DNA of 64,000 nucleotides, taken from an uncultured Alphaproteobacteria bacterium. Its GTDB lineage: Bacteria; Pseudomonadota; Alphaproteobacteria; Rs-D84. Below the pieces are notes generated by a model. That model was not told the DNA's origin. It worked only from the letters and a program-made list of their open reading frames with translations, and made no database searches. Within the stretch, counting starts at the first letter, position 1. Each line of letters starts with the position of its first letter. The translations under genes and the position numbers were made by a program. Shown here one piece after another: positions 3,265 through 60,737 of the stretch. Location of the stretch: the NCBI GenBank assembly GCA_944389595.1, contig CALXMY010000002.1:57913-121912 (forward strand). The letters are read 5' to 3'.

Positions 3265-3287
3265 ATATAACACACGTTTGTGTTTTT

Positions 3288-3316: not shown

Positions 3317-3386
3317 TTTGCAATCTGTGTTTGCCAAAGACAATTATTTTATGTTATAATTACATAGTAACAGGTAGCGAGGGATT

Positions 3387-5346: not shown

Positions 5347-5356
5347 GGCATATGTC

Positions 5357-8069: not shown

Positions 8070-8094
8070 CGCTTATTCATTAGGTATAATTTAT

Positions 8095-8118
8095 GCGCGC
8101 CGGTTGGCGCGCTGTTTT
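8095..8118 (+). terminator. rho-independent terminator after the platform gene
   Basis: GCGCGCC-ggtt-GGCGCGC hairpin followed by TGTTTT. Confidence 0.65.
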
Positions 8119-8136
8119 ATAAATAACAGGTAACAA

Positions 8137-8706: not shown

Positions 8707-8710
8707 GGTA

Positions 8711-11671
<2,961 letters not shown>

Positions 11672-13676: not shown

Positions 13677-13695
13677 GATTATTATTCGTAATTAA

Positions 13696-16530: not shown

Positions 16531-16604
16531 GCCCTAATAGTCTAGTGGTAAAACACGTCCTTGGTAAGGACGAGTCGCAAGTCCGATTCTTGCTTAGGGC
16601 ACCA
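16531..16604 (+). tRNA. tRNA-Thr (GGU anticodon) with a non-canonical T-loop
   Basis: Acceptor GCCCTAA/TTAGGGC. Perfect anticodon arm CGTCC-UUGGUAA-GGACG. T-arm GCAAG-TCCGATT-CTTGC carries C at position 55 instead of U, and there is a D-stem mismatch. Encoded CCA. A TTGATT-16-TATAAT promoter lies at 16491-16518. Confidence 0.6.
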
Positions 16605-18138: not shown

Positions 18139-18364
18139 AGATTGTGTTTATAATAATGATTAACTGGTCTCTATATTGCTCTATCTGTTTATCTGTTAAG
18201 TTTATATTGCCCAGATATTTACGACATTCTGCCACCGACATCGTCGCCATCGCGCCCACCAAAAGGTCTGCGTTTTGGCCTCGGTTTGTGCGTAAGCGAA
18301 AACAATGTTAAACAAATCCTTTATTACATCGGTTCGTGCGATATGTCGTAAAAAGGATTGATTT

Positions 18365-19105
18365 TTATATTTCATTCCATACCTCTGTCAGATTCAAAAT
18401 GAAATTTTTGTTAATCATTTTTTCTTGTGCCATTAATATAATATCGTCAATGCGTGCAATATTACACCGCCCGGCCATATCCATATACAGGTATATATCG
18501 TCTTTATTTTTTGTCTTGTCAAAACAAGTGTATGCAATTTCAAGCAGACTAAAATCTGTGCCTGGTAATTTTACCCGCAGGGATTCTTTCGTTTTTTGTA
18601 ATTTACGAACAGATACCCCAAAATCGCGACAGGCTTTTAATATATGAATATAAGCAATATCAATTTTTGAAAATGTATACCATTTTTCAATATTGCCGCG
18701 CTCGTCAATCAACAATTCTTGTTTGTGTGTCCAATCGTTTAAGCAGCGACTGCTGATAGGAATATCTTGTTTATGAAATTTTTTATCACGCAGGTCATTT
18801 AAGTATCGGGCTTCTGATAAGTTGTCAGAGCAGAACATAAACACATTCATAGATTCATTTGTTAAAACAACGTCGGCCAATCGGTAATCTTTTATCAAAA
18901 CTTGTGCCGGATATTCTTTATATGGGCGGCTGGATATTAGGGTGATGGCTTGTGTTAATTCCGTTGCCAGGTCGCGCAAATCCTGTCCCTTGAATTCAAT
19001 ATTGTGCTTTTTGCTTTTTATCCTCAGAATACCCGATTTTGCGTCAAAGTCTGTACCAGTTGGGTATTCCTTGGAATCGTAGATATGTTCTTGTTTTTTA
19101 TTCAT
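18365..19105 (-). CDS. hypothetical island protein
   Basis: 246-aa ORF. A possible HTH-like segment (SKIDIAYIHILKACRDFGVSVRKL). Preceded by a 20-bp perfect palindrome. Confidence 0.4.
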   Translation of the reverse strand: MNKKQEHIYDSKEYPTGTDFDAKSGILRIKSKKHNIEFKGQDLRDLATELTQAITLISSRPYKEYPAQVLIKDYRLADVVLTNESMNVFMFCSDNLSEARYLNDLRDKKFHKQDIPISSRCLNDWTHKQELLIDERGNIEKWYTFSKIDIAYIHILKACRDFGVSVRKLQKTKESLRVKLPGTDFSLLEIAYTCFDKTKNKDDIYLYMDMAGRCNIARIDDIILMAQEKMINKNFILNLTEVWNEI

Positions 19106-19118
19106 AGCACAACCTTAA

Positions 19119-19138
19119 ATATTACATATATGTAATAT
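19119..19138. promoter_or_regulatory. 20-bp perfect palindrome ATATTACATATATGTAATAT (candidate operator)
   Basis: Exact inverted repeat 14 bp upstream of the start codon of the 246-aa gene. Confidence 0.4.
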
Positions 19139-19374
19139 ATCAAATAAAAAGCCGTTGTAAAGCAATTTTTTTATAAAAAAATCAGCAAATACAATAATGT
19201 ATGCTTAAAATAGCATACATTGTATACCGTAAATTTAATTCGCGACACTTATTTTGATAAAAATCAGCGCTATGCCACGGAATACAAGGCGTTGCGCGGA
19301 AAATTCAAAAAGTCGTTAATATCGCGCATTTTTTATAATGCCCGGAAATCCGCCATTTTATGTCATAGTGTCGT

Positions 19375-19800
19375 CTAATGTGTTTTTATTTCCAGTTTAG
19401 GTCGCTCTTTGTCGGGGTTTTCTGAAAAATCTTTCGCACATTGAATTATTGCTATGTCTACTAAATGCTCGCGTGTTTCTGCAATATTAAATACATTTAC
19501 AATGTTGTGTTTAATCGCTTTATAGACTTGTTTTTCTCTCATAACGGTGTGCATATTGTCGACTACGCATTCACAGAGTTGGTGTGTCAATATGATATTG
19601 TCTAGTGTTGTGGTGCCTTTGGGAACATATTTATCAACGCAGACCGTTCTAACCTTTTCGTCATTCTTAAAAACATCTCTAAAATATTTGTTAACATACT
19701 TATTTCTGGATTCACACATTGCTAGATAATAGGTAATGCAAGATATGAGTGTTAAAGATATCAAACCAAGTGCAATATGAACTAGTATTTTTGTTTTCAT
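19375..19800 (-). CDS. hypothetical secreted/lipoprotein-like island protein
   Basis: 141 aa with an N-terminal signal sequence containing LISC. Confidence 0.4.
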   Translation of the reverse strand: MKTKILVHIALGLISLTLISCITYYLAMCESRNKYVNKYFRDVFKNDEKVRTVCVDKYVPKGTTTLDNIILTHQLCECVVDNMHTVMREKQVYKAIKHNIVNVFNIAETREHLVDIAIIQCAKDFSENPDKERPKLEIKTH

Positions 19801-19844
19801 AATTTATCTCTTTTTTTGGTTCGACAACCTTGTCGATTCAAAAT

Positions 19845-20231
19845 TTATTGACGCTTTTTATCAAAAATTGCCCAAATTATCGCAAACAGCCAAAGTAATA
19901 TCCCCGCCGGTCCCCATACAGAAAAGAATGTCAGCCAGTAAATACCCGTGCTATGTTTTCGATTAAGAAATGTCGCCAGACATACCGGAATCATACCCAT
20001 TGCAAATGCAATCAGTGCTGACAACAGAAAAACAAGACCGGAATCGTCAACCTGTAAATATGCATTCGACCACCCTAGCGCACCGGCGATAATTGCCCCT
20101 ATGCTAACCAACCACCACGCGCTTGCTGGAATTTTGGGTGTGTGCGGTATATTTGATTTTTCAGATTGTGTATTATTTATGCTAACTTTTTCAGACATTT
20201 TCTTACCCCTTTGATATAAAAAGACCGCCAA
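19845..20231 (-). CDS. hypothetical small membrane protein
   Basis: 128 aa with 3 predicted TM helices. Confidence 0.4.
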   Translation of the reverse strand: MAVFLYQRGKKMSEKVSINNTQSEKSNIPHTPKIPASAWWLVSIGAIIAGALGWSNAYLQVDDSGLVFLLSALIAFAMGMIPVCLATFLNRKHSTGIYWLTFFSVWGPAGILLWLFAIIWAIFDKKRQ

Positions 20232-20531
20232 AGGAATGACGGTCGGGTATTTTCAAAATCATAATTGCAATGACCCTGTGGATTTCGGCGAACCTGTTAT
20301 ATAGCCACAGACACCCGACCAAAAGGTCAGGCAAAACAGTGTAAAAAACACCATTATGCTGTCAAAAACGGATAACGATGTTTTCACACCGTGCAATTAT
20401 GGGTTTTGAACGACCCCGAACCCATATCCCTATGGATTCTTAAGCAAGTATTGCTACCGCCTCAATGTAAAATTATATTTTATAAAATATATTTATGCAA
20501 ACATAATTGTATATTTTATTGTTGGGAGTTA

Positions 20532-20981
20532 TTAAATTGTATCAAGTCTTTCTTTAAGATTGGCAATATCGTCTATAATTTTATTACATTTATTTATGTC
20601 TTGACGCCTAGAAGAGGTTTCAAAATTTTTGCCTGTTGTAAGTTCATATATATCATTAAATTGATTTCTAAAATCATAAATTTTTTTTCTAATAGAACTG
20701 AACTTATTGTGAAGATAATTCAAATTTGTTGCAATGTCTTTTTTGCATGATTTAATATTATTTTCTAGCATTAATTGATGTCCTGAAGGAAAAGATATTT
20801 TTCCCCAATACTCGCAACTAAGGGCTCTAAATTCGTCTAAAAGCCCTCTAATTAGAGATAGTCTATTTTCTTTTGCTCCCAATTTTAGTTGGTGCTTTGT
20901 TATAAAAAATGAAACTATTGCAATGCAAAGTTGTGCTATTATTCCAACAACTGTAATCCAATTATCTGTGGTCATGACCAT
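20532..20981 (-). CDS. small membrane-anchored coiled-coil protein (third gene of GHKL/STAS cassette)
   Basis: 149 aa. N-terminal TM helix VVGIIAQLCIAIVSFFI and a charged helical remainder. Lies 4 nt downstream of the STAS-like gene. The region is very AT-rich. Confidence 0.4.
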   Translation of the reverse strand: MVMTTDNWITVVGIIAQLCIAIVSFFITKHQLKLGAKENRLSLIRGLLDEFRALSCEYWGKISFPSGHQLMLENNIKSCKKDIATNLNYLHNKFSSIRKKIYDFRNQFNDIYELTTGKNFETSSRRQDINKCNKIIDDIANLKERLDTI

Positions 20982-20985
20982 TAAA

Positions 20986-21312
20986 TTATTCCTCTACAGA
21001 TTTTTTTATTATATGCCATATTGACGGTTCTAATGTTATGTCGTCATTACAAATAAAGCTTAATTTGCTTTTAATTGTTTCAAATGAAATATTATTTTCT
21101 CTTATAAGACCGCCAAAGGCTTCGTCCCAAAAAGATGCTCCAACACCATCTAAACCATCTAATATAATATTAATATGCTCTACTTTTTTATCATTAAATG
21201 CAGGAAGAATGAATTCTTCTCTGAAGCGTTGTCCAGAAAACTTACCATAACTTCTATACCTTCCAGCTGGTGCTTTATGAAAGTCTTTTGCGATATTAAT
21301 AGTTTTTATCAT
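20986..21312 (-). CDS. small STAS-like protein (DUF4325-like, anti-sigma-antagonist fold candidate)
   Basis: 108 aa. EHINIILDGLDGVGASFWDEAFGGL matches the strand-loop-helix signature of STAS-like/DUF4325 domains. Lies 9 nt downstream of the GHKL gene. Confidence 0.45.
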   Translation of the reverse strand: MIKTINIAKDFHKAPAGRYRSYGKFSGQRFREEFILPAFNDKKVEHINIILDGLDGVGASFWDEAFGGLIRENNISFETIKSKLSFICNDDITLEPSIWHIIKKSVEE

Positions 21313-21321
21313 TTTTTATCC

Positions 21322-22371
21322 TTATATGTTTACCTGCCACTCTATTAGAGTTCCATTTATGCTATGGATTTTGTCGTTTAACTGTTCTTGAATTCCATTT
21401 CCTCTGATATATTCACCTTTATCACTGATTATTCTTACAAATGCACTTTTTTTCAAAGATGTAACATAGTCGATTATTAGAGGCAAGCCATTTCCTCGGT
21501 TCTTTTGATTGGTTTGTGAAATTCCAGCATGTGTAGCCTCTCTAATTTTTGCCGCATCAGACATTCCTAATAGTTTTGTCAATAAGTTTGGCCTTGTTTT
21601 TGGTAATGATTTTGGAATGCCTATGCCTTGGTCAAAAAACATCACATTAAGAGTAGATGTGTTTCGGTTAATTGATGCAGACATCCACCACATTTTTTGT
21701 TTTAATGGGCTACTCATGATAAAATTATCAGGATAACCGTGACTTAACACGTTATCCATAGCTTCGTCAAGAGCGATTTTTAGTTTTTTCTTATTTGGCA
21801 ATACGTCAATAAGGTTACTCAAAGTATCACGAAAAGTTAGGACGTCATCGGGATTAACCAAATTTCCAGACATAAATTTTAAAAATATAACATCCTTTTT
21901 TCTTGGTTCTTTTCCAAATTCTGCAGGAATGTTTTGTATATTTAATAAATCAAACATCCCCATATCGTATAACAAGTATTTTATTTCTTCTTTCCAATTT
22001 TTGAAATCTACAACGTGCAATTTACCGTTTTTGCCTCTTATCCTACGTAATCTATCTAACTCCGAAGTAAAAACTAGCGCACAACCAGGGGTTATAAAAT
22101 CAATACCAGTAAAGTCTATTTTTAAAGAGCACAATGGATCATCTGCACATTGTCTAATATCATTTAGAAAAATTCTGGTTTCTTTATTTGTCAAATCAAG
22201 GCAGGTCGGGGCTTTTAATTTTTTTCTATACGGTGAATGTTTTGCAAGAAATTGACCTTTTTTACGAATTTGTGTTTTTCTTCTGTATAATTTTGCTCTT
22301 TTGCGCAAAAGAAACTGGCGATGTTTCCAGCGTCTTTCTTTGTTATTATTGTTATATTTTTTTATTACCAT
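21322..22371 (-). CDS. GHKL-family ATPase / RsbW-SpoIIAB-like serine kinase with N-terminal STAS-like domain
   Basis: 349 aa. Bergerat-fold motifs: N-box EAMDNVLSHG, G1 FFDQGIGIP (DxGxG) and G2 RGNGLPLI. The N-terminal ~100 aa include IDFTGIDFITPGCALVF, which resembles the STAS beta-strand/loop. Confidence 0.6.
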   Translation of the reverse strand: MVIKKYNNNNKERRWKHRQFLLRKRAKLYRRKTQIRKKGQFLAKHSPYRKKLKAPTCLDLTNKETRIFLNDIRQCADDPLCSLKIDFTGIDFITPGCALVFTSELDRLRRIRGKNGKLHVVDFKNWKEEIKYLLYDMGMFDLLNIQNIPAEFGKEPRKKDVIFLKFMSGNLVNPDDVLTFRDTLSNLIDVLPNKKKLKIALDEAMDNVLSHGYPDNFIMSSPLKQKMWWMSASINRNTSTLNVMFFDQGIGIPKSLPKTRPNLLTKLLGMSDAAKIREATHAGISQTNQKNRGNGLPLIIDYVTSLKKSAFVRIISDKGEYIRGNGIQEQLNDKIHSINGTLIEWQVNI

Positions 22372-22708
22372 TTTGTACTACATTGCATATATAGTATATA
22401 AATAGCTAAATATCAATATAAACAATGAAGAATACATAATGTGTATGTATTCCAATTCTATTTCGGTGTTTTATTGTTAAAATTATTGTTTTTTATAAAT
22501 CCGCCGTTTGCAACTTTACGATAATTCAAAATGCCACTTTCCTTAATAATCCTTGCATTTCGCATTATTTCATTATAAAATCTGTTCCAGTTGTCCCAAC
22601 TTTTATGTAGTAGGGGCACCAGAGTATTTATGAAGTCTTTTCCCGTTTTTAATTGTATTTTTACTATGCTTTTTTTATAATTAATCTGTAAATTACAGGG
22701 GTTATTTT

Positions 22709-23296
22709 ATGGCGGTGGAAGTAAATATCGGCGTTTTTGGTGCCAACGAGGGATTACAAGTCAGTCCTTGTTTTCAAAATAAAACTTATAGAAATACATT
22801 GGTGAATTTATATAACCCGAATGTTACGCATGGCGGGAAACAAATGTTTGTGTTCAAAACCCCGGAAAACGATGTTGTATACGCCATGACCATTGGCAGC
22901 GGCGGCCAAGACAAGTTGTTTTACGGTTTTAATGGCCGTCCGGGTTCTTTTGTTGGGGTTGCATTGGCGATAAAAAATGCGCAATTCAAAGATGTGAATC
23001 AGGCCATGGATATATTGGATTGGGCATATGAAAATAAAATCAAAGGCAATATCATAGAAAGCACAGGCGAAAATAAAAAGTTTGTCATAGACGGATACGA
23101 ATTTTCGGGCGACAAAATACAAAGTTTTATGGATTCTGCCATTGGGGACAGAATAACCCATGTTTGCCAACGTGGCGATTGGGGTACTTTTAAATATAAT
23201 GCCGATACGGATTCCAGGGTGGCAGTATACCGATTTCCATCGGAAAAATCTGATTTAGAAAACGCGATAAAAAAAAATCAAGGAAATGGGCTTTGA
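22709..23296 (+). CDS. hypothetical protein
   Basis: 195-aa ORF with host-like GC content. No recognisable domain. Confidence 0.4.
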   Translation: MAVEVNIGVFGANEGLQVSPCFQNKTYRNTLVNLYNPNVTHGGKQMFVFKTPENDVVYAMTIGSGGQDKLFYGFNGRPGSFVGVALAIKNAQFKDVNQAMDILDWAYENKIKGNIIESTGENKKFVIDGYEFSGDKIQSFMDSAIGDRITHVCQRGDWGTFKYNADTDSRVAVYRFPSEKSDLENAIKKNQGNGL

Positions 23297-42849: not shown

Positions 42850-43198
42850 AAACACAAACCGACCGGATGGTCGGTTTTTGTTTTGTGTTGGGACAAAAAT
42901 CTTTTATTTTTTTGTGTGTTTTTGGTACAATTATGGGTGAATCCAGTGGGGACACTGGTTCGGTGCTTTTACATGCCCGCCAAATCCGGTGCAACATGGC
43001 AAGCCGTCGGGAATATGATGTGCTTTCTGTGAAATGCGTCGTTATTTATCACTGACTTGTAAAAGTCGGGGGCTGTTGGTTATACAATACGGGTTCCCCG
43101 AGAGACCAATGGAATCAACGATTTGGTGATTTGTGAACCATCGACCGCCTGATGTCTTTGCTGGGCGGTTTTATAAATGACTATGGGGGTAAAATAAC

Positions 43199-43805: not shown

Positions 43806-45170
43806 ATGAAATGGTATGGGTGTCTTTTAATTGTTGTTTTAATGGTACTGGGGGTGCCGTGTTCTGTATTGGCAGAAACCGAATCTGGGGCCCGGAAAAC
43901 CGATGATACACACGAATTTACTATGACTGCGGTCCAGGCAATGCAATTGGCCGGGGCGATGGTTGAACGTGGTGATATTGAAAATGCGGAACAAATTTTA
44001 ACCAAAACGCCGCCAATGAATAACGCGGCGTTGGAAATAGAACGTTGGTTTTTATTGGCACAAATTGCCACCAGACGTGGCGACATAGACAGCGCGATAG
44101 AAATATATCGTACCATATTAGATGCCCAGCCTGATTTGGCGCGCATTCGTTTCGAATTAGCAGTATGTTATATGCATCAAAAAAAATGGTCGCGTGCCGA
44201 TTATCATATGCGTCTGGCGATGGCTGGTGATGATTTGCCCGAAAATGTGCGTGGTTTAATGAATTATTACAGGTATATCATTCGTCAAAATAAAAATTGG
44301 AATGTGTGGTTTAATTTCAGTGCCGCGCCCGATAATAATATAAATAATGCGGTTGGTGGCCAGGAATGCGTTTATGGTGTTTTTTGTCGTGATTTGCCGG
44401 ATCCTGTATCTGCGATGGGGTATAATTTAACATTGGGCGGAAATTACGAATTTAAATTATCGGATCAATGGCGATGGAAATCTGATGCCAGTGTGTATAG
44501 TAATATTTACGATTTACATGATTATGATGACTTGTTGTTATATGTTAGCACCGGGCCACGGTTTATTTGGTCGCGTGGGGATGTATGGTTGGGGGCACTG
44601 GCAACGCGGCGTTGGTATGGTTGGCGTGGTTATAATTGGGCCGCAGGTGTTCGAATAAATGCTGGTTATGATTTTACGCGTAAATTATCTGGTGGGTTGT
44701 CTTTGCAATATGTGTCGAATCAATATGATGATTATGGCGATTTTTTAAACGGTGGCACATATTCAACAAATATTCATATGGTTTATTCAATTACCCCCAG
44801 TATTTATACTGTTATGCGTGGCGGTATTGCACGTGAGAAAACAATTGCATCCGAATATTCATATTTGATGCCGAATATCAGTATTGGTATTGGGGCCGAA
44901 TTACCGTATGGATTTGGGGTGTATTTTGAACCGAATTTTTATTGGCAGTTATATGATGCGCCACAATGGGTTGTATACGATAATGTATTTGCCCAAATAA
45001 CCGAACATGATTTTACCCAGCGTTATTCAATTTCGATATCAAATAATAAACTGGATGTATGGGGTTTTGTTCCAACTGTTGTTTTCAGCTATACGCGGCG
45101 TGATTCAAATATGTGGCAACGTGAATATGACCGATGGGCAATTGAGTTCACAATGCAGCAACGTTTTTAA
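43806..45170 (+). CDS. outer-membrane protein with N-terminal TPR-like region and C-terminal beta-barrel (DUF560/Slam-like architecture)
   Basis: 454 aa. Signal peptide, helical TPR-like repeats at about aa 40-160, then aromatic-rich alternating strands ending ...FTMQQRF (C-terminal Phe). Confidence 0.4.
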   Translation: MKWYGCLLIVVLMVLGVPCSVLAETESGARKTDDTHEFTMTAVQAMQLAGAMVERGDIENAEQILTKTPPMNNAALEIERWFLLAQIATRRGDIDSAIEIYRTILDAQPDLARIRFELAVCYMHQKKWSRADYHMRLAMAGDDLPENVRGLMNYYRYIIRQNKNWNVWFNFSAAPDNNINNAVGGQECVYGVFCRDLPDPVSAMGYNLTLGGNYEFKLSDQWRWKSDASVYSNIYDLHDYDDLLLYVSTGPRFIWSRGDVWLGALATRRWYGWRGYNWAAGVRINAGYDFTRKLSGGLSLQYVSNQYDDYGDFLNGGTYSTNIHMVYSITPSIYTVMRGGIAREKTIASEYSYLMPNISIGIGAELPYGFGVYFEPNFYWQLYDAPQWVVYDNVFAQITEHDFTQRYSISISNNKLDVWGFVPTVVFSYTRRDSNMWQREYDRWAIEFTMQQRF

Positions 45171-45181
45171 GCATGTGTTAA

Positions 45182-46807
45182 CTATTCTTCGATTTCCACA
45201 CTGTCGATATATGTACGATTAACAGATTCCAAATTTACCGGTTGAAAATCAGGCGATGAAATAATCGGATCCCGGTCATCTTCGGGTAAAATGATTATCG
45301 TATCGGTCGATGTGGTTGGCGTGCTGTGTGTGATGTGGGTGCCATATGTATCAGATTTGTATTTGTCGCGCAGGCGCACAGGGATACTGATAAAATCATC
45401 CGGATTTACCCCGGGGGTTTCCAAATCCATTTCACGTGCAGGTTTGATTTTTTGTTGTTCCAAACTGTACACAGGGGTTAAGAAATTTTGTACGGCATTG
45501 TGTGTAATGCGCGAATTACCATCGCCCGCCAGTTGCATAATTTGTAATGCACGTTCGTTTTCACCGTTGGGCTTTAAACGGTACAAGCCGGAAACACCGG
45601 CATAACCACTGGGGTCCAATAAATATGCCGCGTCTGATTTATATGAATATATCATGCCCATTGCCATGTTTGCGGCATCATATCCAAATGCCGCCAAATG
45701 GTTTGGTAATGTATTTGTTGCACGTTCGTATAAATTTGAAAACGATGGTGTTATATCAGGCAGTGCAGTATATTTTGCGCCAATCATGGTTATATCATCC
45801 ACTATATCGGAACCGGCCCATAATGATGTGCCGTAAAAGCGCGCCTCGTTCGCGCCAACGCCGTAATAGCGCATGAATGATGCCAGACTTTCTGTATCAT
45901 TACCGTCGCCCAAAAACAGAACTGCATCATATGGTAATTTGCCGATAACTTCCAGTTTAGACATGCGTTCCAGTTGAATGTTTAATGACGATTCTTCCAG
46001 TACGGTTAATCGTTCATTTGTTAATATGTCTGATAAAATTTCACGTGCACGTGTGTTTGCCGTGCTGCGTGCGGTATTCATTGATGCGGCCAATGTTGCA
46101 GATTTAATTGATTCGGAATTTTTTTCGGTATAATAAAATATTCCATTTACCGGTATGTTATATATTTCGGCCGCCGCATATGCCGCGCCCGCCATCAGTT
46201 TTCCTGAATCTGTATCTGGGGCCATGATGATAAAGCCGGTTACACCATCGGCGGCCATTTCGCTGACAATTGCCTCGGTATTATTGGTGGGCATTAATGC
46301 CATTGTCATAACGCCGTCGCCCAATGCGGTTGCATCAGATGTAAAAGATAAAACAGGCAACGATTCCGGTTTGGCATTGCGCAGGGCGCGGGCATCGTTT
46401 GCAAATACCGGCCCAATTACAATTTCGGGATTTGTGGCCAATACATCGTTAATTGTTGTGGGTAAATCGGCCGCGGTATCATAAAATGCAACCGATAAGT
46501 TTTGTGGCGCAGATTGTAAAACAGCCAATTCAATTGCATCGCGTATAGTGCGTCCGGTATCCGCCGCGTCGCCGGTTAATGGCAACATAACCGCCATGCG
46601 GTGCACAGTGGCCCCCAATAAATTATCAGACGGCGTTCCCGGTTGCATATCGGGTGACCCATATTGCATTATAATTGGTGTACCCGTTTCTAAGGTACCG
46701 TATTCGCCGTACCAATCAGTTCGCGATGCATAATCGCCGGCACAGCCCGCCATTAATAAAACCGCCAAAAATCCAAAAAATTTATTCATATGCATTGAAA
46801 AATCCAT
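45182..46807 (-). CDS. lipoprotein with periplasmic-binding-protein type I-like domain (LpoA/LppC-like)
   Basis: 541 aa. Lipobox LLMAGCAG and a PBP-I-like core beginning RMAVMLPLTGDAA. Divergent from rsmI, as in the enterobacterial yraM(lpoA)-yraL(rsmI) arrangement. Has an acidic C-terminal extension. Confidence 0.4.
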   Translation of the reverse strand: MDFSMHMNKFFGFLAVLLMAGCAGDYASRTDWYGEYGTLETGTPIIMQYGSPDMQPGTPSDNLLGATVHRMAVMLPLTGDAADTGRTIRDAIELAVLQSAPQNLSVAFYDTAADLPTTINDVLATNPEIVIGPVFANDARALRNAKPESLPVLSFTSDATALGDGVMTMALMPTNNTEAIVSEMAADGVTGFIIMAPDTDSGKLMAGAAYAAAEIYNIPVNGIFYYTEKNSESIKSATLAASMNTARSTANTRAREILSDILTNERLTVLEESSLNIQLERMSKLEVIGKLPYDAVLFLGDGNDTESLASFMRYYGVGANEARFYGTSLWAGSDIVDDITMIGAKYTALPDITPSFSNLYERATNTLPNHLAAFGYDAANMAMGMIYSYKSDAAYLLDPSGYAGVSGLYRLKPNGENERALQIMQLAGDGNSRITHNAVQNFLTPVYSLEQQKIKPAREMDLETPGVNPDDFISIPVRLRDKYKSDTYGTHITHSTPTTSTDTIIILPEDDRDPIISSPDFQPVNLESVNRTYIDSVEIEE

Positions 46808-50709: not shown

Positions 50710-52047
50710 TTAATTAAATGTTCCGTCGGACCCGCGCATTGGGGCACTGGTTTCTGCGCGATTACCGGTATTTTTTTCGCCGTTCAGTGCGCATCTGGAC
50801 CATTTGCGGGCATTACATGTTTTTGTCCCAAGCCGGCCGTCTGATGTTACACAGGATACCGTTTTCCCATTTTCACATGTGTCGAAAACACAGGCCTGAA
50901 AATCCGATGCGTTCGAATTTGGAAAACAGTTATACATTTTTGTTCGTGATATAGCAGTTTTTTTAAGGCATAAACCGTTGCTGTAATATTCTGTATTATC
51001 GCATGTTATACATTCGTCGCGCGTTGGATGTTTATACGAGCCTTCGGGGCATGGTACGCACTTGCCCGATTCGTCATGGACATATTCGTCGATACAATCG
51101 GTGCAGTCACCCGTTTGCGAGTTAAACATAGTTGTCGGATCGGTGCATTCGGTGCATAAATCGGTGGTGCAGTTTGGGCCGTCAAAGCCCGGCATGCACA
51201 GTGTTTTTGTGGTATAGCCGCCTTTGTTATCGGTTACCTGCAGGTTTACCTGGGCATTGCTGTAATAATATTTTTGATTTTCCATGTATGTATAATCATC
51301 TTCTGACCATGCGCCATAGACACTGTGTGCAGTGACTGTTGCGGGCGATGCGATTATGCCATGGCCATTTTCCAGATATGATTTTGCGGCCAGAATCACG
51401 TCGTGTTCGCATCTTTTGCTGTAACATGATTTGCTATGTTGGAAAAAACCAAGTGTATTACGCATTGATTCTTCTATGCTGGAATTATCGTTGCCGCCAC
51501 TTTCGTTATATGTAATAAATTGTTTTAAATAATCCGGGGTTAAATTTATGTATACGCATGAATCCGGGGATGTTGCGCGGCCCAGGTTGCATCCGTCGCC
51601 GCTGTATCCGGGTTCGCATAACCAAAAACATGTTTTGCCCATATCGCCATCAGGTAATTGATATTGTGTCCATGTGTCGTTATATTGTGTGCCTTTGTTT
51701 TCATTTCTGGCGCGAATCTGGGTTGCACAAAAATATCCGCCATGTTCAACAATGATTCTGGCGGAATAGACGACGACAACGGCCTCTTTGTCATCATTGG
51801 CGGGCTTGTGTTTCGGCAATAGCCAAAAATCCATATCTGGTAACAGGGTAACAGGATCAATGGACATACCGTTTGACCATGTGTTTTCTAGTATGACCGG
51901 ATTGTTCCATGCGTCGTTTATAGCAGCCAAATCTTCATAATATTCTTTTATACGTTGCATCCATTCCGCAATTACATCTGTTGCGTTTTTTGCCATCGCA
52001 GAGTTACAATACAATGCCGAAAATAAACCACCGTTTGGATTAGGCAC
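50710..52047 (-). CDS. cysteine-rich protein with eukaryote-like EGF and ephrin-receptor/TNFR-like repeats
   Basis: 445 aa. EGF signatures CEPGYSGDGC and CMPGFDGPNC. C-x-x-C-P-x-G-S-Y repeats (CVPCPEGSYK...CITCDNTEYY). No obvious signal peptide. Confidence 0.5.
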   Translation of the reverse strand: MPNPNGGLFSALYCNSAMAKNATDVIAEWMQRIKEYYEDLAAINDAWNNPVILENTWSNGMSIDPVTLLPDMDFWLLPKHKPANDDKEAVVVVYSARIIVEHGGYFCATQIRARNENKGTQYNDTWTQYQLPDGDMGKTCFWLCEPGYSGDGCNLGRATSPDSCVYINLTPDYLKQFITYNESGGNDNSSIEESMRNTLGFFQHSKSCYSKRCEHDVILAAKSYLENGHGIIASPATVTAHSVYGAWSEDDYTYMENQKYYYSNAQVNLQVTDNKGGYTTKTLCMPGFDGPNCTTDLCTECTDPTTMFNSQTGDCTDCIDEYVHDESGKCVPCPEGSYKHPTRDECITCDNTEYYSNGLCLKKTAISRTKMYNCFPNSNASDFQACVFDTCENGKTVSCVTSDGRLGTKTCNARKWSRCALNGEKNTGNRAETSAPMRGSDGTFN

Positions 52048-52183
52048 AGACAGGAGGAGTAAAACATGCAGATTTCCGAGCTTTTTAATAAAATAAAAAC
52101 CACGCTTTTAATCGGTGGTTTATTTTCGGCACGGTTCTGTATGAATGTTATGTTATATTTGTTATTGAATCAAGTTGTTTTTT

Positions 52184-53038
52184 TTAATCCATTTTTAACA
52201 TCAAACCACAATGATCGGTTGGCTTTGCCGCCAGGCGTGGTGATATATCAATTTCACAATGTTTTATTGATGTCATTGCCGCGGGATTGGCCAAAAAATA
52301 ATCCAAACGTAATCCCTGGTTATTGCCAACAGTATCGCGGCCACGATAACCATACCACGTGTACCCAATTTCATCACCGTGCATTTTGCGCCATACGTCC
52401 GTCCAACCGCTGTCCAGCCATGATTGCATAATTTCGCGCGCGGCCGGGGCGGCGATTGCGATGCCAACATAATTTGCAGGTTTCCACACATCGGCATCAG
52501 TTAACGCCACGTTAAAATCACCGCCAATTATTACCTGTTCGGGTGAATTAACATATTGCGATATATAATCAGTAAATGCGCGCATCCATTCCAATTTATA
52601 TGGGAATTTTGGTGAATCAACTGTATCACCATTTGGCATATATACATTTATTACGCGTATATGTCCATTAATGACGCATTCAATAAAACGCGCATTTATA
52701 TCCGGATATGTTGGCAGTCCCATTGTTACATCTTCGATGGAATATTTTGAAAATACAGCAACCCCATTCCAACTTTTTTGACCATATACCTTGATATTAT
52801 AACCGTATTCATCAAACAAGTTGTGTGGGAAATTTGCCGTTTCTACCTTTAATTCCTGAACCAAAATGGTGTCGTATTCGCCACCACGCAGCAGGTCTAT
52901 GAAACTTTCCGCATGTGCGCGGATTGAATTGATATTTAATGTCAGTATTTTCATAATTGCAATCTTTTCCTTGGTTGATATAATAAGGGTTGTCCAATAT
53001 AAAAACAACAAGGAATTTTTATTATGAATATGTATCAA
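52184..53038 (-). CDS. xth: exodeoxyribonuclease III
   Basis: MKILTLNINSIRAH... EEP-fold ExoIII, with catalytic motifs (QELK, GDFN, C-terminal DHCGL). The likely true start is at about 52954. Confidence 0.85.
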   Translation of the reverse strand: MIHIHNKNSLLFLYWTTLIISTKEKIAIMKILTLNINSIRAHAESFIDLLRGGEYDTILVQELKVETANFPHNLFDEYGYNIKVYGQKSWNGVAVFSKYSIEDVTMGLPTYPDINARFIECVINGHIRVINVYMPNGDTVDSPKFPYKLEWMRAFTDYISQYVNSPEQVIIGGDFNVALTDADVWKPANYVGIAIAAPAAREIMQSWLDSGWTDVWRKMHGDEIGYTWYGYRGRDTVGNNQGLRLDYFLANPAAMTSIKHCEIDISPRLAAKPTDHCGLMLKMD

Positions 53039-54604
53039 TTGCTGGAACGTACCACCCAGGCGTGGCCGGACAATTTATTTTTGGTGCGCGAAAATGTTAC
53101 GTTCAAGGAATTCATAGATTTGGTCCGTGCGCGTGCAACATCATTGCATGCCGCGGGGGTAAAACGTGGCGATGTTGTCGGGGTTTTGGCGCATAATATA
53201 CCGGAATTTCCAACTACGCTGTTTGCAATATGGTATTTGGGGGCGACGGCATTATTGCTGGATACCAATTTAACGCCGTTTGAATATGATAATATGACCG
53301 AAACAACCAATTGTCATCTGGTGTGTGCGGAATCATCATTTTTCTATAAAACAAAAAAATTTAAATTTTATGATATAACCACACCAGATGAAAAAATAGA
53401 CGCACGGTTGAAACCGGCACCTGTGGAATCAACGGATACGGCAACATTGTCGTTTACATCGGGTTCAACTGGTACGCCAAAGGTTGTGCCATTAACGCAC
53501 TTTAATTTGGTGGAATGCGCAAATTCATTGGAAGATATGCATAAATGGATCAAGCCCGGGTTTGTGATGTATGGATTTTTGCCGATGTATCATATTTTCG
53601 GGTTTGCGGTTGAAATATTGGCAACCCTGCATTATGGGGCGGGGGTTTTATTACAACCCAGCATTAATCCAAAGGAAATCATGGCGGATTTCAAAGAATA
53701 TCGCCCGCATGTAATTCCGGCTGTCCCCAGATTGTGGGAGGTTTTACGCAACCGCATCATTGAAAATATCAAGGCGCAACACAAATGGTGGTTGGCATCG
53801 TTTGTTTTAAAATACGGTAAATTATTGAATAAAATTGGGTTGGGTGGATTGGTAAGAAAGGTCCAAGAACCTGTATTGGCCGTGTTTGGCGGTCGGGCAA
53901 AGTTATTAATTGCCGGCGGTGCCGCCACCAAGCCAGAGGTAGAAACATTCTATGAACGGTTGGGATTAACATTTATCCAGGGATATGGATTAACCGAAAC
54001 GGTTGGACCAATCTGTATTTCCAAACCAACAAAAAAACGTTTCCCGTTTGCTTTTGGTGGGCCGACCACAAACAACGAATGCGAAATTCGTGACAAGAAC
54101 GAGGATGGGGTCGGTGTTTTATGGGTGCGCGGACACCAGGTGTTTGGCGGATATATGAATAATCCGGCCGTAAACAGCGAAGTGTTCGACGAACGTGGAT
54201 TTTTTAACACTGGTGATATGGTGACCATGGATAAAAATGGTGAATTACATTTTGCCGGCCGGAAAAAACAGGTGATTGTTTTGGATTCTGGTAAAAATGT
54301 ATATCCTGACGAGTTAGAGGGCATGTTCATTGAAATTCCGGGGGTTAAAAATGTCGCCGTGTTCGAGCATAAGGTCAAAGGCAAAACCGTGACATATGGG
54401 GTGTTTAGTGTGGAACCCGATATGACAATGGAAAAATTATCTGCAGCAATTGCCCAGGCAAATAAAAAAGTCGCATCATATAAATGGGTGACGCATTTTG
54501 CCATGACCAAGGACGATTTACCCACCACCAGCACGCAAAAGGTTAAACACCATGTCGTGCGCCAGAATTTGATAGAGGGTAAATATCCTGACAGACATGA
54601 ATAA
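53024..54604 (+). CDS. AMP-dependent synthetase/ligase (acyl-CoA synthetase family)
   Basis: 526 aa. AMP-binding motif FTSGSTGTPKVV and the YGLTE core. Confidence 0.75.
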   Translation: MNMYQLLERTTQAWPDNLFLVRENVTFKEFIDLVRARATSLHAAGVKRGDVVGVLAHNIPEFPTTLFAIWYLGATALLLDTNLTPFEYDNMTETTNCHLVCAESSFFYKTKKFKFYDITTPDEKIDARLKPAPVESTDTATLSFTSGSTGTPKVVPLTHFNLVECANSLEDMHKWIKPGFVMYGFLPMYHIFGFAVEILATLHYGAGVLLQPSINPKEIMADFKEYRPHVIPAVPRLWEVLRNRIIENIKAQHKWWLASFVLKYGKLLNKIGLGGLVRKVQEPVLAVFGGRAKLLIAGGAATKPEVETFYERLGLTFIQGYGLTETVGPICISKPTKKRFPFAFGGPTTNNECEIRDKNEDGVGVLWVRGHQVFGGYMNNPAVNSEVFDERGFFNTGDMVTMDKNGELHFAGRKKQVIVLDSGKNVYPDELEGMFIEIPGVKNVAVFEHKVKGKTVTYGVFSVEPDMTMEKLSAAIAQANKKVASYKWVTHFAMTKDDLPTTSTQKVKHHVVRQNLIEGKYPDRHE

Positions 54605-54705
54605 ACAAAACGGGGCGGGGCCCCGTTTTAGTTACTGGTAACTGGTTACTCGTGTTCCCGCCCAGGGGGGGGTGGACATTTGTACGAACGACGCGATGGA
54701 TTAAT

Positions 54706-54736
54706 AAAAAATCGGCATATTATTGCCGATTTTTTA
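54706..54736 (+). terminator. rho-independent terminator
   Basis: ATCGGCA-tattat-TGCCGAT hairpin followed by TTTTT. A second, weaker GC hairpin (AAACGGGGC-ggg-GCCCCGTTT) lies at 54608-54628, directly after the stop. Confidence 0.6.
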
Positions 54737-55166
54737 AAGTTAAAGTATTTTGATAACTTTATAAAAATATATGTAATTTCATGTTGATATTTTTTATATT
54801 TAATAAATTAATTTTATGGTAAAACTGTTTTAATTTATATTTTGTATCAAATAAATTTAATCCTGGTGGGGTTGTTTTTATTATTAATGAAAGAATGTTT
54901 TACTTAAATTTTCCAATATGATAAAATACCAGTGATGGTACGGATTGTGCCATTGGGGTGTCAGAACCCGTTAAGCATGGTGTCTGCTGTATATTCGGCG
55001 GACAGGTTACTCCAATCAATATTTGGTTGGAGGGTGGCGGAATGTATAAATACGTCACACTATTTTCTATGCTTAATAGTTCTGAACCTCCAACCACCTG
55101 AAATTTATGGTGGTTTTTTGTTACGGCATGTGACAAAGGAGATGTAAACTGCTGTATTATTTTTTT

Positions 55167-56126
55167 GTGTTTTTGTTTTGTTTGATATGTATGGTGCCCG
55201 CGTTTGGTGATGTTACTTGTGCGTCCGGTTATGCTTTAAATGATGATGGGCAATGTGTTGCGCATTGTTTGGCTGGATGGTATGTTGCCGATGCGGGACA
55301 ACCATGCATAGAAATTAGACGTGGCAGTCCATATTATTCTGCGGAACATGATGTTGTATATGGCGATACATCGGGTGATAATTATAAAAAATGTCCGGAT
55401 CCTGATCCGAATACCCCCGGCGGATATGTATTTATAAATACTGCTGGGGTGGATTATAACAGACAAACGGATATCAGGCATTGTTTCCGCGTGGATGTGC
55501 CCGTACGATATTTTGAAAATGTTAACATACGAACATGCGACGGTAATGGGAATTGTATACATCAAATGACAACGCATGGTGTGGTAAATAATCCGTGCCC
55601 GTACCAGTATGGTGATGATGGTACCGCTGTTTACGGCGAAGGGGATGAATATCTTTGCTATGGCGGTTCCACAAATATGAAATCATGTGATGCAGGGTTT
55701 TATGCGCAAAAAACAAAAACGGGGTATTCCGGACGGTATTTTCCGTGTTCGCCCGTTGGCACCGAATATTATTCGCCGGATGGTGATTTGGCGCGGTATC
55801 CGTGCCCAACCGGTACGATGACATGCGGGTATGGTGATTGTGCGGATAGTATTGATGATTGCGTACCATATAAGATATTGCATATTGATGATTTAGCCAT
55901 ACGTGTTGCGGCATCAAAATATACCGTGCCCGCATTAAATATAAAAATGCCAGATGGCAATGTTTTTTATGGTTATACTGTGGTTGGTGATTTTTCACCG
56001 GCATTAAAATTTCGTGCGCCCAGTGGCAGTGTGTACAGTGTGATAAATCCGCTGGATGAATTTGAACGCGTTTTGATTCCGGCATATCATGTATGGCCGG
56101 CATATACCGAAATTGTTATACCGTGA
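55167..56126 (+). CDS. secreted cysteine-rich protein with ephrin-receptor/EGF-like repeats
   Basis: 319 aa. Signal peptide. CASGYALNDDGQCVAHC and CDAGFYAQ...CSPVGTEYYSPDGDLARYPCPTGTMTCGYGDC follow the C..G(F/Y)Y...C..CP.GT pattern. Confidence 0.5.
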   Translation: MFLFCLICMVPAFGDVTCASGYALNDDGQCVAHCLAGWYVADAGQPCIEIRRGSPYYSAEHDVVYGDTSGDNYKKCPDPDPNTPGGYVFINTAGVDYNRQTDIRHCFRVDVPVRYFENVNIRTCDGNGNCIHQMTTHGVVNNPCPYQYGDDGTAVYGEGDEYLCYGGSTNMKSCDAGFYAQKTKTGYSGRYFPCSPVGTEYYSPDGDLARYPCPTGTMTCGYGDCADSIDDCVPYKILHIDDLAIRVAASKYTVPALNIKMPDGNVFYGYTVVGDFSPALKFRAPSGSVYSVINPLDEFERVLIPAYHVWPAYTEIVIP

Positions 56127-58929: not shown

Positions 58930-59907
58930 ATGAAATTTCTGATTGTTGCGTTAATGGGTGTAACGTTTGTGACCGGCGCGTATGCGGCCGATGTTGCGGC
59001 GTTGGACGTTTCAATTGCGGCTGTGCGCGCGGCGTGTAATGGTTTGTCCGGTCAAATGGGCGAATTAAAACGCATGGCTGGAATTAATACCGCGGTAACG
59101 GGCGCGGGCACATTGGCCAGTGGTGGTGCAACCGCGGCGGGCATAGTTAAATCATCTGTTGATAAACAAGCCGACGAAATCGAAAATTGGCTGAACCAAT
59201 ACATGACGCAACCGACCAATATATCAGGTAACCCAAAAATTAATTTGGCAAATATAAACAGGGAAGAGTTTGCCATAACTGTCGGTGATTCCGGCGTTGT
59301 GGGGGCGGTTATAGGCGGAACAACAAATTCAGAAATTATTGCGAAACAACGCGAATTAGATGAAAAAAAACAGCAGTCAAAAACATTGGGTAATGTTCGT
59401 ACAGGATTATTGGCCACCGGAACAGTTGCAAATATTGCGGGCGCGGTAATTTCAGGGAAAAATCGTACCCAGGGTGGATTAGGGGCACAAATAAATGATT
59501 GTATTGATGCGGTGCGTGCGTTAGAAACTGCAAAGATGCAGGCGCATGTTGCGGGAACCGCCACGTCTGATAAAATTGTGCTTGCTGATAATATTATTTC
59601 TGCGTGTGGTGGATATAAAACTGCTGATTTATCGGTTGTTGATAATCGGGCCAAGGGGGCAACTATTTCCAGTGGAATTGGGGCGGCAACTGGGTTAATT
59701 GGAACAATTACATCGGGGGTTGCAAATTCAAAACCAATACGTGATGGTGATCAACAGCGTGAAAAAAATTTAAATACCGCATCAAATGTTTTAAGCGGTG
59801 CAACAACGGCGGCATCGTTGACGGCGACTATATTTAATGCAACACAAATAAATGCGGTTAAAAATTTGGTTCAAATAGCAGATCAATGCGAGGGAGCATT
59901 AAGATGA
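58930..59907 (+). CDS. hypothetical secreted Gly/Ala/Thr-rich protein
   Basis: 325 aa. Signal peptide ...GAYAADVA, with low-complexity G/A/T-rich segments. Confidence 0.45.
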   Translation: MKFLIVALMGVTFVTGAYAADVAALDVSIAAVRAACNGLSGQMGELKRMAGINTAVTGAGTLASGGATAAGIVKSSVDKQADEIENWLNQYMTQPTNISGNPKINLANINREEFAITVGDSGVVGAVIGGTTNSEIIAKQRELDEKKQQSKTLGNVRTGLLATGTVANIAGAVISGKNRTQGGLGAQINDCIDAVRALETAKMQAHVAGTATSDKIVLADNIISACGGYKTADLSVVDNRAKGATISSGIGAATGLIGTITSGVANSKPIRDGDQQREKNLNTASNVLSGATTAASLTATIFNATQINAVKNLVQIADQCEGALR

Positions 59908-60737
59908 AAAAATTATTTGTGATGTTTTTAGTGGCGGTTATGTTTATTTCACCCGCTGTATCCGCGGATGATAGTGAATTTACCATGGATACGCGTGTGG
60001 TGTTAAGTTACGATGATTTTGCAAATACAGAATTTTTCACATCACATGAAAATGGGTTTATGTGTTTTATGCTCTTTATGCAATGGATGGATTTATATTG
60101 GAATACCAAATATTTTGACGAGTCTGTAAATGGATATAATATTTCAATGTCAGAATTGTATAAATTATCAGATTTTGTTTTGCAAAATGTTTCCCATGAT
60201 AGAATACCAGAAGACATAATCAATTTTGAAAAAGAAAGTGATACAAATTCATGCAAATTTTTGCAGGCGGCATTACCAAATTCAATTTTACCAAACAGCA
60301 ATAAGCGCATCAGTGAGATAAGTACGGAGTTGGTTTTTGATGTTTTTTCTAATGCGGCGGATAAACAATCGAATAAATTATCAACAGAAACGAACACAAA
60401 TCATCAAACGCAAAATGTTACGGCAGATCCGGCACGCATTGATGCAAATATGAATGGCGACCCTGATGATATTTATGATATTGTTATTCAATATACAGAT
60501 ATGGATGCATCGAGTGTAAGAAGTCGTATGTTTTTAAAAATTCAGACATACATAATAAACAGATATTGCGCTACGGATAATGTGATGTTTAGTTGTGTGC
60601 CGGAACCTCGTTTGAATTGTGATTTATTACCAAACACAACATATTTGGAACGTGATCTGGATTTATTGTGTAATAATCGTAATTGGGGGGATTATGTCAT
60701 AGATGATGGGGTTTATGAATTAAGATTGGAACGTTAG
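59886..60737 (+). CDS. hypothetical secreted protein
   Basis: 283 aa. Signal peptide MKKLFVMFLVAVMFISPAVSA, with a likely start at 59904. Confidence 0.45.
   Translation: MRGSIKMKKLFVMFLVAVMFISPAVSADDSEFTMDTRVVLSYDDFANTEFFTSHENGFMCFMLFMQWMDLYWNTKYFDESVNGYNISMSELYKLSDFVLQNVSHDRIPEDIINFEKESDTNSCKFLQAALPNSILPNSNKRISEISTELVFDVFSNAADKQSNKLSTETNTNHQTQNVTADPARIDANMNGDPDDIYDIVIQYTDMDASSVRSRMFLKIQTYIINRYCATDNVMFSCVPEPRLNCDLLPNTTYLERDLDLLCNNRNWGDYVIDDGVYELRLER

Follow-up and report, generated by a model that had tools for sequence, protein, structure and literature searches.

We analysed a 64,000-nt stretch of DNA (the window) from an uncultured Alphaproteobacteria bacterium (contig CALXMY010000002.1 of assembly GCA_944389595.1), in which two open reading frames (ORFs) encoding cysteine-rich proteins, ORF A and ORF B, flank an xth-like exonuclease gene and an acyl-CoA synthetase gene. 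An initial annotation had singled out these two ORFs, and its coordinates, strands, lengths and neighbouring genes all agree with ours. It had read the two proteins as carriers of eukaryote-like domains, a tempting label that we replace here as unsupported. ORF B lies behind a conserved, structured leader RNA, and in several related genomes both protein families are found behind this same type of leader. It is likely that A and B represent two unrelated, lineage-restricted families of exported, disulfide-rich proteins sharing a promoter-leader-gene switch module, in which the leader would exert terminator/antiterminator control in cis. What links A to B is shared regulation and not homology, and the leader RNA with its regulon is a more notable finding than the domain reading.

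A conserved leader RNA upstream of ORF B

The DNA preceding ORF B had been described as an AT-rich non-coding region of ~430 bp. It is indeed non-coding, but it spans 562 nt (54605-55166), and only positions 54737-54930 are AT-rich (16.5% GC), while the following 54931-55122 have 42.7% GC. When positions 54900-55170 were folded, a minimum free energy of -95.9 kcal/mol was obtained (z = -6.95 against 200 shuffles). The AT-rich part carries the promoter, and the leader that follows ends in an intrinsic terminator (Table 1). B keeps this complete module of promoter, leader and terminator, and its leader is identical in a second strain.

Loci from related genomes and contigs are labelled L001 to L026 below. 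A first covariance model was built from three leader copies. At least 21 copies were detected by covariance model in the related loci, as well as a second copy in the window, and the matches in 13 related loci had E values of 1e-10 to 1e-43. A second model, covering the 3' half of the leader, added a third tandem copy in L016 and a copy in L004 located upstream of the gene for a 279-aa protein with 22 cysteines. As a control, the covariance model was run on 689 kb of viral contigs sharing a 15-mer with the leader: no match was found at E <= 0.01, and the 15-mer matches are due to chance. A weak match at window positions 43042-43177 was judged to be a hairpin with a terminator and was not counted as a copy. 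Upstream of B relatives in L019, L022, L023 and L025, the same layout was seen with different sequences.

The structure is supported by covariation. In the alignment of 17 copies, 91.8% of the cells fall into standard pairs, compared with 38-50% when the partners are slid by 1-3 columns. Both sides have changed at 36 of the 48 pairs, and none of 500 shuffles reached the observed values. Eight helices covary, and the eighth, that of the terminator, shows 92.4% pairing with a U-run after it. Moreover, the leader has two alternative pairings in its 3' half. In a structure-blind MAFFT alignment of this half from 14 copies, the terminator conformer was 89.6% paired (35-61% when slid), and the helix between region 2 and region 3 was 97.6% paired (30-60% when slid). 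This second helix comprises 8-11 consecutive base pairs in all 17 copies, and regions 1, 2 and 3 change jointly from copy to copy, as in CUCCAACC/GGUUGGAG/CCUCCAACC, CCUCCUGC/GCAGGAGG/CCUCCUGCC, CCCUGACC/GGUCGGGG/CCCCGACC and CUUUCAUC/GGUGGAAG/CUUCCACC. A pseudoknot, formed by the P5 loop and the segment after the 5' strand of P1, was present in 13 of the 17 copies, with 5-10 bp and a different sequence each time.

The second leader copy of the window is divergent. By eye, its matched regions read GCCUGACC / GGUCGGGU / ACCCGACC and its pseudoknot has 7 bp (AAUUGCA/UGCAAUU). Downstream of it lie genes for a 117-aa membrane protein (19845-20198) and a 141-aa putative lipoprotein (19375-19800), which this copy would control. 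It is located, together with several unannotated ORFs, in an island of low GC content (16531-23000; 32-34% against 41% overall), whose neighbours are a tRNA-Thr gene (16531-16604) and a 514-aa ORF on the minus strand (16594-18138) that appears serine-recombinase-like on reading of its sequence.

Attenuation through a leader peptide was rejected. A 70-codon ORF (54935-55147) overlaps the whole leader of B and ends at an ATG-TAA after AAGGAG; it is not conserved, no consistent upstream ORF was found in the other copies, and it is probably not a gene.

Genes behind the leader and the predicted switch

We then looked at the placement of the leader relative to genes. Of the 17 copies tabulated, nearly all have a TATAAT- or TAAAAT-type -10 box immediately before the leader start, mostly with a TTG-type -35 box. 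Every copy with a readable downstream region lies on the same strand as the first ORF there, which begins 0-45 nt after the terminator. The genes found behind the leader (its cargo) are B-family genes, A-family genes, genes for three further types of exported cysteine-rich proteins, a gene resembling those of outer membrane proteins (OMP-like) and small helix-turn-helix (HTH) genes. A-family genes directly follow the leader in L003, L006 and L007, which hold orthologues of A, and in L013, which holds a distant family member. The OMP-like gene was found behind it in L003, a third cysteine-rich family in L006 and L007, other cysteine-rich exported proteins in L011 and L008, and small XRE-type HTH genes in L004, L005 and L009. 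In total, 14 of the 19 cargo genes encode proteins predicted to be exported and containing at least 5% cysteine. In L011, a near-threshold match to the Rfam family Leu_leader (44.9 bits against 50) was seen at 13690-13820 on the minus strand, just downstream of a leader-controlled gene for a 261-aa cysteine-rich protein.

Between the acyl-CoA synthetase gene and mnmE lies a slot in which a leader is kept while the cargo differs: B in the window, the OMP-like gene in L003, and a gene for a cysteine-rich protein of 205-213 aa in L006 and L007. In L008, no gene is present in the slot after the acyl-CoA synthetase gene. Judged from these sequences, the slot would behave like a cassette site. Three tandem leader copies are present in L016 (124-706, minus strand), like tandem riboswitches, and the gene they regulate runs off the end of the locus. 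A protein with an Mtd_N domain (L016, 5903-6484) is encoded near a long B relative in the same locus and may hint at a diversity-generating system.

The proposed module would run from a sigma-70-type promoter through a leader RNA of ~190 nt to the gene. The leader domain is predicted to consist of Pa, P1, Pc, the hairpin of regions 1 and 2, P4, and P5 with its pseudoknotted loop, and the 3' strand of P1 would run straight into the intrinsic terminator. Region 3, which is a copy of region 1, shares nucleotides with P1 (3' strand) and with the terminator (5' arm), and its alternative pairing with region 2 would make an antiterminator. In this arrangement, the folded domain and the terminator can coexist, and pairing of region 2 with region 3 excludes both. 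When the domain is folded and stabilised by a presumed ligand or factor, the terminator would form and the gene would be off. When the domain is unfolded, region 2 would pair with region 3, allowing read-through into the gene. We infer from this geometry that the leader is an OFF switch.

The leader has the structural characteristics of a terminating riboswitch or attenuator, namely a covarying structure, a terminator and an antiterminator that exclude each other, and a sense position in a 5' untranslated region with its own promoter. Like those elements, it is promoter-proximal, ~190 nt long, pseudoknotted and made of several helices, it occurs in several copies per genome and sometimes in tandem, and its cargo is rich in exported or surface proteins and in regulators. 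In this respect, c-di-GMP-I and c-di-GMP-II riboswitches precede genes for adhesins and surface proteins, with many copies per genome. The leader differs from known terminating riboswitches in that it matches no Rfam aptamer and has an unusual three-way design, regions 1 and 3 being copies that both pair with region 2.

A cis-acting attenuator could also be run by a protein or by another RNA, for example by an RNA-binding antiterminator or by the small HTH proteins that share the leader. The three leaders placed before small XRE-type HTH genes suggest such a feedback loop, and no known aptamer class matches the leader. However, XRE HTH proteins bind DNA, and the size of the leader, its pseudoknot, its multi-helix junction and its conserved unpaired nucleotides are typical of metabolite aptamers. 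We regard control by a protein or another RNA as rather doubtful, though worth keeping in mind.

The leader was then compared with known RNAs. No family of Rfam 15 attained its threshold, either across the window or within the leader. The nearest family was sRNA-Xcc1 (RF02221), with 36.9 bits for the copy in L003 and 31.1 bits for that in L011 against a gathering score of 53, and it gave no match to the window leader copy at E <= 10. The EGFOA motif was discarded as a match, being an unrelated family (RF02955) of other bacteria. sRNA-Xcc1 has been described as an integron-borne, trans-acting small RNA (sRNA) of Xanthomonas. Its consensus has a G-rich/C-rich closing stem, two hairpins, an AAUACAA-type loop and a UUUGAG-type linker followed by CACC. 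In L003 and L011, where the leader stands upstream of genes, this consensus aligns with the antiterminator conformer, that is the stem of regions 2 and 3 together with P4 and P5. The leader differs in having twice the length, an additional 5' domain (Pa, P1, the pseudoknot and region 1) and a terminator. sRNA-Xcc1 has been reported upstream of symE or ORF6N genes (10.1101/2025.06.18.660453; 10.1101/2020.03.17.996009), a position that would also fit a cis-acting role. When sRNA-Xcc1 loci were sought through SymE toxins on plasmids, the loci obtained carried symR, isrA and Ssr1 instead.

This likeness bears on another explanation, in which the leader would be a family of trans-acting sRNAs ending at their own terminator, or a mobile repeat with an outward promoter, and its position before genes would be incidental. 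With its own promoter and terminator, an RNA of ~190 nt would accumulate, and two copies show the sub-threshold similarity to sRNA-Xcc1. One copy lies in a genomic island, three are in tandem in L016, and the cargo differs at the same slot among sister genomes. Against this, all readable copies face the next gene at the short distance given above, and the antiterminator covaries in 17 of 17 copies, although it would be purposeless in a free-standing sRNA. Copies inside one genome are strongly diverged, unlike miniature inverted-repeat transposable elements. As to the accumulating RNA, terminated riboswitch leaders commonly appear as "sRNAs". An sRNA or mobile-repeat nature of the leader is in our opinion unlikely.

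Within the cis-acting switch that we prefer, a more specific proposal can be put forward tentatively, as one that we hold to be possible but would not yet bet on. The leader at 54931-55122 may represent a new riboswitch class, an OFF switch for a metabolite or second messenger, with a three-way exchange of regions, placed over a regulon of disulfide-rich surface or exported proteins, families A and B among them, in an uncultured lineage of gut Alphaproteobacteria; under this proposal, sRNA-Xcc1 would form the antiterminator core in a set of related cis-regulators and would not be a purely trans-acting sRNA. The leader is in any case a well-defined orphan regulatory RNA that had not been described, and it offers an experimental entry to the biology of these bacteria, which have not been grown in culture. 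The leader points to a signal under which these gut bacteria may remodel their surface, and it may prompt a re-reading of the sRNA-Xcc1 family.

Two families of cysteine-rich proteins

Neither A nor B has a Pfam or NCBIfam name, and among the remaining window ORFs of 120 aa or more, none attains 5% cysteine. When A and B were considered as one family, the comparison by hhalign gave a probability of 23% and the grouping was rejected. The analysis places them in two hitherto unannotated families that thereby gain a context, A with 254 representative clusters and B with 16 members, both probably exported and disulfide-rich.

Family A was first defined by 25 close relatives of ~400 aa, none of which has a Pfam domain (relatives are given P numbers below). 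Their alignment extends over the full length and shows ~20 cysteines that are invariant or nearly so, together with the strongly conserved motifs HGGYFCATQ, WLCEPGYSG, ENGHGIxASPA and KTLCMPGFDGP. A profile search against 1.84 billion representatives yielded 254 clusters at E <= 0.001, 159 of them at E <= 1e-10; nearly all are 350-530 aa long and matched over most of the profile. One outlier, a Giardia-VSP-like repeat protein, was matched in the ladder part only. In the predicted layout of A, a long N-terminal helix is followed by a beta-rich domain (about aa 55-280) and this by a C-terminal cysteine ladder (aa 284-419). The AlphaFold2 model, obtained from the 25-sequence alignment, is a confident one, with a predicted local distance difference test (pLDDT) score of 82 and a predicted template modelling (pTM) score of 0.69; it likewise shows the long N-terminal helix, the beta-rich domain and a C-terminal run of short strands. 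A fold search with this model found no match in PDB or BFVD, and the best Foldseek rows, cysteine-rich regions of HER4 and mGluR, were not significant (E >= 0.5). The cysteine ladders may serve as a rigid stalk or scaffold that withstands proteases, either at the cell surface or in the periplasm. The ladder of A would present the beta-rich N-terminal domain, the predicted fold of which is matched by no solved structure.

Among species-representative genomes, the A family occurs in metagenome-assembled genomes (MAGs) titled uncultured Alphaproteobacteria, Rickettsiales or proteobacterium. The sources of named relatives are Hadza human gut, rumen, goat reticulum and termite-type samples, all of them animal gut. 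We take the bacterium of the window to be gut-associated as well. These statements, like the others on organisms, cover relatives with an organism name, most relatives being unnamed metagenome proteins. The order addB-A-xth is found in five sister genomes (L003, L005-L008), and the longer order lppC-rsmI-engB-addB-A-xth-acs is common to the window and its closest loci. In the syntenic loci, A is 46-52% identical compared with 55-87% for its neighbours. A is therefore best described, from these comparisons, as an old, fast-evolving resident gene and not a recent import. In L010, two A paralogues stand in tandem (6135-8908), and in L004 a 143-aa protein with 11 cysteines (9152-9580) is encoded right after the A orthologue.

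The profile search assigned 16 proteins to family B, and the sole member with a source name is labelled Alphaproteobacteria. The family has 12 invariant cysteines and a cysteine-poor, beta-rich C-terminal third, and B itself has an N-terminal hydrophobic, signal-like segment. Five longer relatives (525-600 aa) have an N-terminal extension rich in CPxGYYC and CPAGTYS repeats; B of the window is a short form without this extension. The spacer was searched for remains of this extension, and nothing upstream of 55146 matched the long N-terminal half. Further B loci were sought in JGI metagenome contigs and none was confirmed. In L012, an 846-aa protein with 60 cysteines (2829-5366) matched the B profile weakly.

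The initial annotation had proposed eukaryote-like repeats of the epidermal growth factor (EGF) and ephrin-receptor or TNFR type, typical of host-interacting effectors or adhesins. On such a view, the repeats would have been acquired from eukaryotic hosts or would mimic them. The sequences on which it relied are present in A: CEPGYSGDGC at aa 144-153, CMPGFDGPNC at aa 284-293 and CVPCPEGSY at aa 330-338. They do not make canonical EGF signatures, for the PROSITE patterns EGF_1 (PS00022, C-x-C-x(5)-G-x(2)-C), EGF_2 (PS01186, C-x-C-x(2)-[GP]-[FYW]-x(4,8)-C), Asx-hydroxylation, TNFR (PS00652) and laminin-EGF all fail in A and in B. Only the C5-C6 half-motif C-x2-G-[FYW]-x-G-x2-C was found, twice, in A. 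This sub-motif corresponds to the second beta-hairpin of an EGF module, and around its first occurrence C140, C144, P146, G150 and C153 are invariant across the family alignment. A thus resembles EGF-like domains (PS00022, PS01186) in holding two C-x2-G-[FY]-x-G-x2-C sub-motifs, the first one invariant, and differs in having neither the six-cysteine module nor C-x-C (it has C-x3-C or nothing), the motifs lying in or beside a larger non-EGF domain. As for the supposed C-x-x-C-P-x-G-S-Y repeats, B has no C-x2-C-P-x-G-[ST]-Y, and A has a single one (aa 330-338).

Domain searches gave only sub-threshold matches. In A (aa 322-354), Pfam reported Ephrin_rec_like at 16.6 bits (gathering score 23.1) and NCD3G at 15.5 bits (38.9), and in B cEGF at 13.5 bits (26.6). 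No EGF-family Pfam model matched A at E <= 1, NCBIfam had no match for A or B, and sequence-profile searches of PDB with both families retrieved no solved structure even at E = 10. Weak families among the 25 A relatives were NCD3G (9), Ephrin_rec_like (4), TNFR_ELAPOR1_6th (3) and Furin-like_2 (1). Ephrin_rec_like was seen below threshold in 4 of the 25 relatives of A and in 3 of 8 for B (best E 0.0069 and 0.0013, respectively), TNFR_ELAPOR1_6th in three relatives of each family (E >= 2e-4), and EGF_TEN in 2 of 58 distant A relatives only. The resemblance to ephrin-receptor, TNFR and furin-like cysteine ladders (Ephrin_rec_like/GCC2_GCC3, PF07699; PF23091; PF15913; NCD3G, PF07562) is therefore confined to matches below the Pfam thresholds, in aa 322-352 of A and in long B relatives, and consists in the spacing C-x2-C-P-x-G-[ST]-Y, present once in A and repeatedly in the extension of the long B relatives. 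It differs in that B of the window lacks the extension with the best repeats, there is no link by fold or sequence to solved receptors, and no eukaryotic relative was identified. For B itself, repeats of ephrin-receptor or TNFR type were not recovered: the PROSITE TNFR pattern fails and no Pfam model reaches its cutoff.

The sub-threshold matches (Ephrin_rec_like, NCD3G, TNFR_ELAPOR1_6th, cEGF and Furin-like_2 in A, B and some relatives), the CPxGTYS-type repeats of long B relatives, the gut-associated sources and the Giardia-VSP-like outlier would all fit an origin of these repeats in eukaryotic hosts, or mimicry of them. On the other hand, no EGF, Ephrin_rec_like or TNFR model reached its gathering score, no solved structure is related by sequence or by fold, and no named type of cysteine repeat accounts for aa 1-280 of A or for most of B. 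Relatives with an organism name are all bacterial, which comes close to a bacterial-only family. The GC content and the GC content at third codon positions (GC3) of A (0.44 and 0.43) and of B (0.44 and 0.33) are within the range of core genes, and together with the conserved position of A in sister genomes they give no sign of recent acquisition from eukaryotes. No homology of A or B to eukaryotic EGF or ephrin-receptor domains is detectable, and we consider host-derived repeats improbable. The initial reading stands in part: they are probably exported and cysteine-rich, with named relatives from animal-gut MAGs, but a eukaryotic origin of their domains is unsupported. "Exported, cysteine-rich proteins of gut-associated bacteria" is a plausible description.

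Export is deduced from the families and not from the window copies, whose N-termini are atypical or weak. A starts with GGLFSALYCNSAMA followed by K and has no charged n-region, while complete aligned relatives show a clear signal peptide; its nearest relatives P0001 and P0002 share the atypical N-terminus. After residue 14, A has 24 cysteines, an even number for the predicted mature protein. The signal peptide ascribed to B is plausible, since MFLFCLICMVPAFG followed by D aligns with the clear signal peptides of complete relatives, but it is weak, as it depends on the GTG start at 55167 and has an uncharged n-region and no workable Shine-Dalgarno sequence. In the recorded gene call, the start is ATG 55191 and the product has 311 aa.

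Upstream of A, a scan with the full leader model and filters off gave only a 5-bit hairpin match, and no leader aptamer. The 136-nt upstream region carries a promoter-like sequence and a hairpin (ACCAC...GTGGT followed by a T-run, ~52091-52127). The same layout without aptamer is found in L026, the locus of P0002, which is 67% identical to A. The simplest reading of these sequences is that A in this lineage has lost the aptamer part of the leader. The called product of P0002 has a long N-terminal extension (MPNTNHRLKSWFLFFLK...), apparently a translation of the hairpin and T-run upstream of A (window 52048-52110; L026 469-560), and its true start is probably at the GTG/VPNPNGG position, as in the window.

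Several points weigh against a leader-controlled regulon of exported proteins as proposed here. The termination control is predicted from sequence, and its ligand or factor is putative. The covariance-model alignment (A8) was fitted to the model, whereas A9 was not, and all leader copies come from one clade, so that relatedness inflates the covariation counts. The loci were chosen for carrying A or B genes, which biases the cargo statistics, and three cargo genes encode cytoplasmic HTH regulators, so that the regulon is not purely envelope-related. A of the window has neither a leader nor a classical signal peptide, its N-terminus being predicted as a long helix. For B, no Shine-Dalgarno sequence lies at a workable distance from the GTG start, and the AlphaFold2 model is poor (pLDDT 50), too poor for a fold search. 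Expression and export of these two copies are thus unproven.

One may also ask whether A, B or both are decaying or silent in the window. The atypical N-terminus of A with its upstream region of only 136 nt, and, for B, the missing properly spaced Shine-Dalgarno sequence and the 4 synonymous against 4 nonsynonymous differences from L001, would agree with this. However, both ORFs are intact and all invariant cysteines are kept. A is identical in two independent metagenome contigs, and it shows 7 synonymous and no nonsynonymous differences from L002, a second strain. Moreover, P0001 and P0056, both near-identical relatives, belong to 90%-identity clusters with 118 and 113 member sequences, respectively. 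Decay or silence is very unlikely in our view, and we retain two families under a shared leader as the preferred reading.

Coordinates and neighbouring features

Table 1. Features of the two cysteine-rich genes, the leader RNA and their surroundings (window positions unless a locus label is given).
Feature	Position	Strand	Remark
ORF A	50710-52047	minus	445 aa, 25 Cys (5.6%)
C-terminal cysteine ladder of A, aa 284-419	50791-51198	minus	opens with second half-EGF motif CMPGFDGPNC (51169-51198)
Only Ephrin_rec_like-type stretch of A, aa 322-352	50992-51084	minus	sub-threshold Pfam match
Half-EGF-like hairpin motif CFWLCEPGYSGDGC (C-x3-C-x2-G-Y-x-G-x2-C), A aa 140-153	51589-51630	minus	in N-terminal beta-rich region
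Region upstream of A, 136 nt	52048-52183	minus	promoter-like TTGATT-17-TAACAT and terminator-like hairpin
xth-like exonuclease gene (Exo_endo_phos)	52184-53038	minus	directly upstream of A, same strand
AMP-binding (acyl-CoA synthetase-like) gene	53024-54604	plus	Pfam family
Terminator-like hairpin after acyl-CoA synthetase gene	54606-54630	plus	hairpin scan
Second hairpin after acyl-CoA synthetase gene	~54707-54740	plus	read by eye from the sequence; reported by no scan
AT-rich promoter region	54737-54930	plus	TTTACT-17-TAAAAT with TG extension at 54899-54927, ends 3 nt before leader
Conserved leader RNA, 192 nt	54931-55122	plus	fold, covariance model, covariation
Leader Pa	54934-54941 with 54947-54954	plus	
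Leader P1, 5' strand	54955-54965	plus	
Leader pseudoknot, 5' strand	54971-54980	plus	
Leader Pc hairpin	54981-55004	plus	
Leader region 1:region 2 pairing	55010-55017 with 55025-55033	plus	
Leader P4	55036-55056	plus	
Leader P5	55059-55080	plus	pseudoknot partner in loop 55067-55076
Leader P1, 3' strand	55081-55091	plus	
Leader region 3	55087-55096	plus	copy of region 1
Leader intrinsic terminator	55092-55115	plus	U-run to 55119
AAGGAG, then immediate ATG-TAA	55136-55147	plus	Shine-Dalgarno-like, 25 nt upstream of B GTG start; read directly
ORF B	55167-56126	plus	319 aa, 18 Cys (5.6%); 311 aa from alternative start ATG 55191
Second, divergent leader copy	20216-20440	minus	E ~2e-5; 26.7 bits with filters off
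Slot with leader	L003 4178-5045; L006 4420-5221; L007 4386-5181		cargo according to lineage

Between the terminator of the acyl-CoA synthetase gene and the promoter of B, a poly-G tract (54665-54672) differs in length, reading CCCAGGGGGGGGTGG in the window and CCCGGGGGGG in L001; either hypervariability of the tract or an artefact of assembly could explain this. Further downstream, two adjacent ORFs with signal-peptide-like N-termini (58930-59907, 325 aa, and 59886-60737, 283 aa) matched no Pfam family at threshold, and neither is preceded by a leader. The second has only 33.7% GC, and both may be further lineage-specific envelope proteins. Finally, the region 43806-46807 of the window contains a TPR_Slam/SlipAM-type gene (Slam-like, 454 aa) and an LppC/LpoA-like gene (541 aa), two families best known from Beta- and Gammaproteobacteria.

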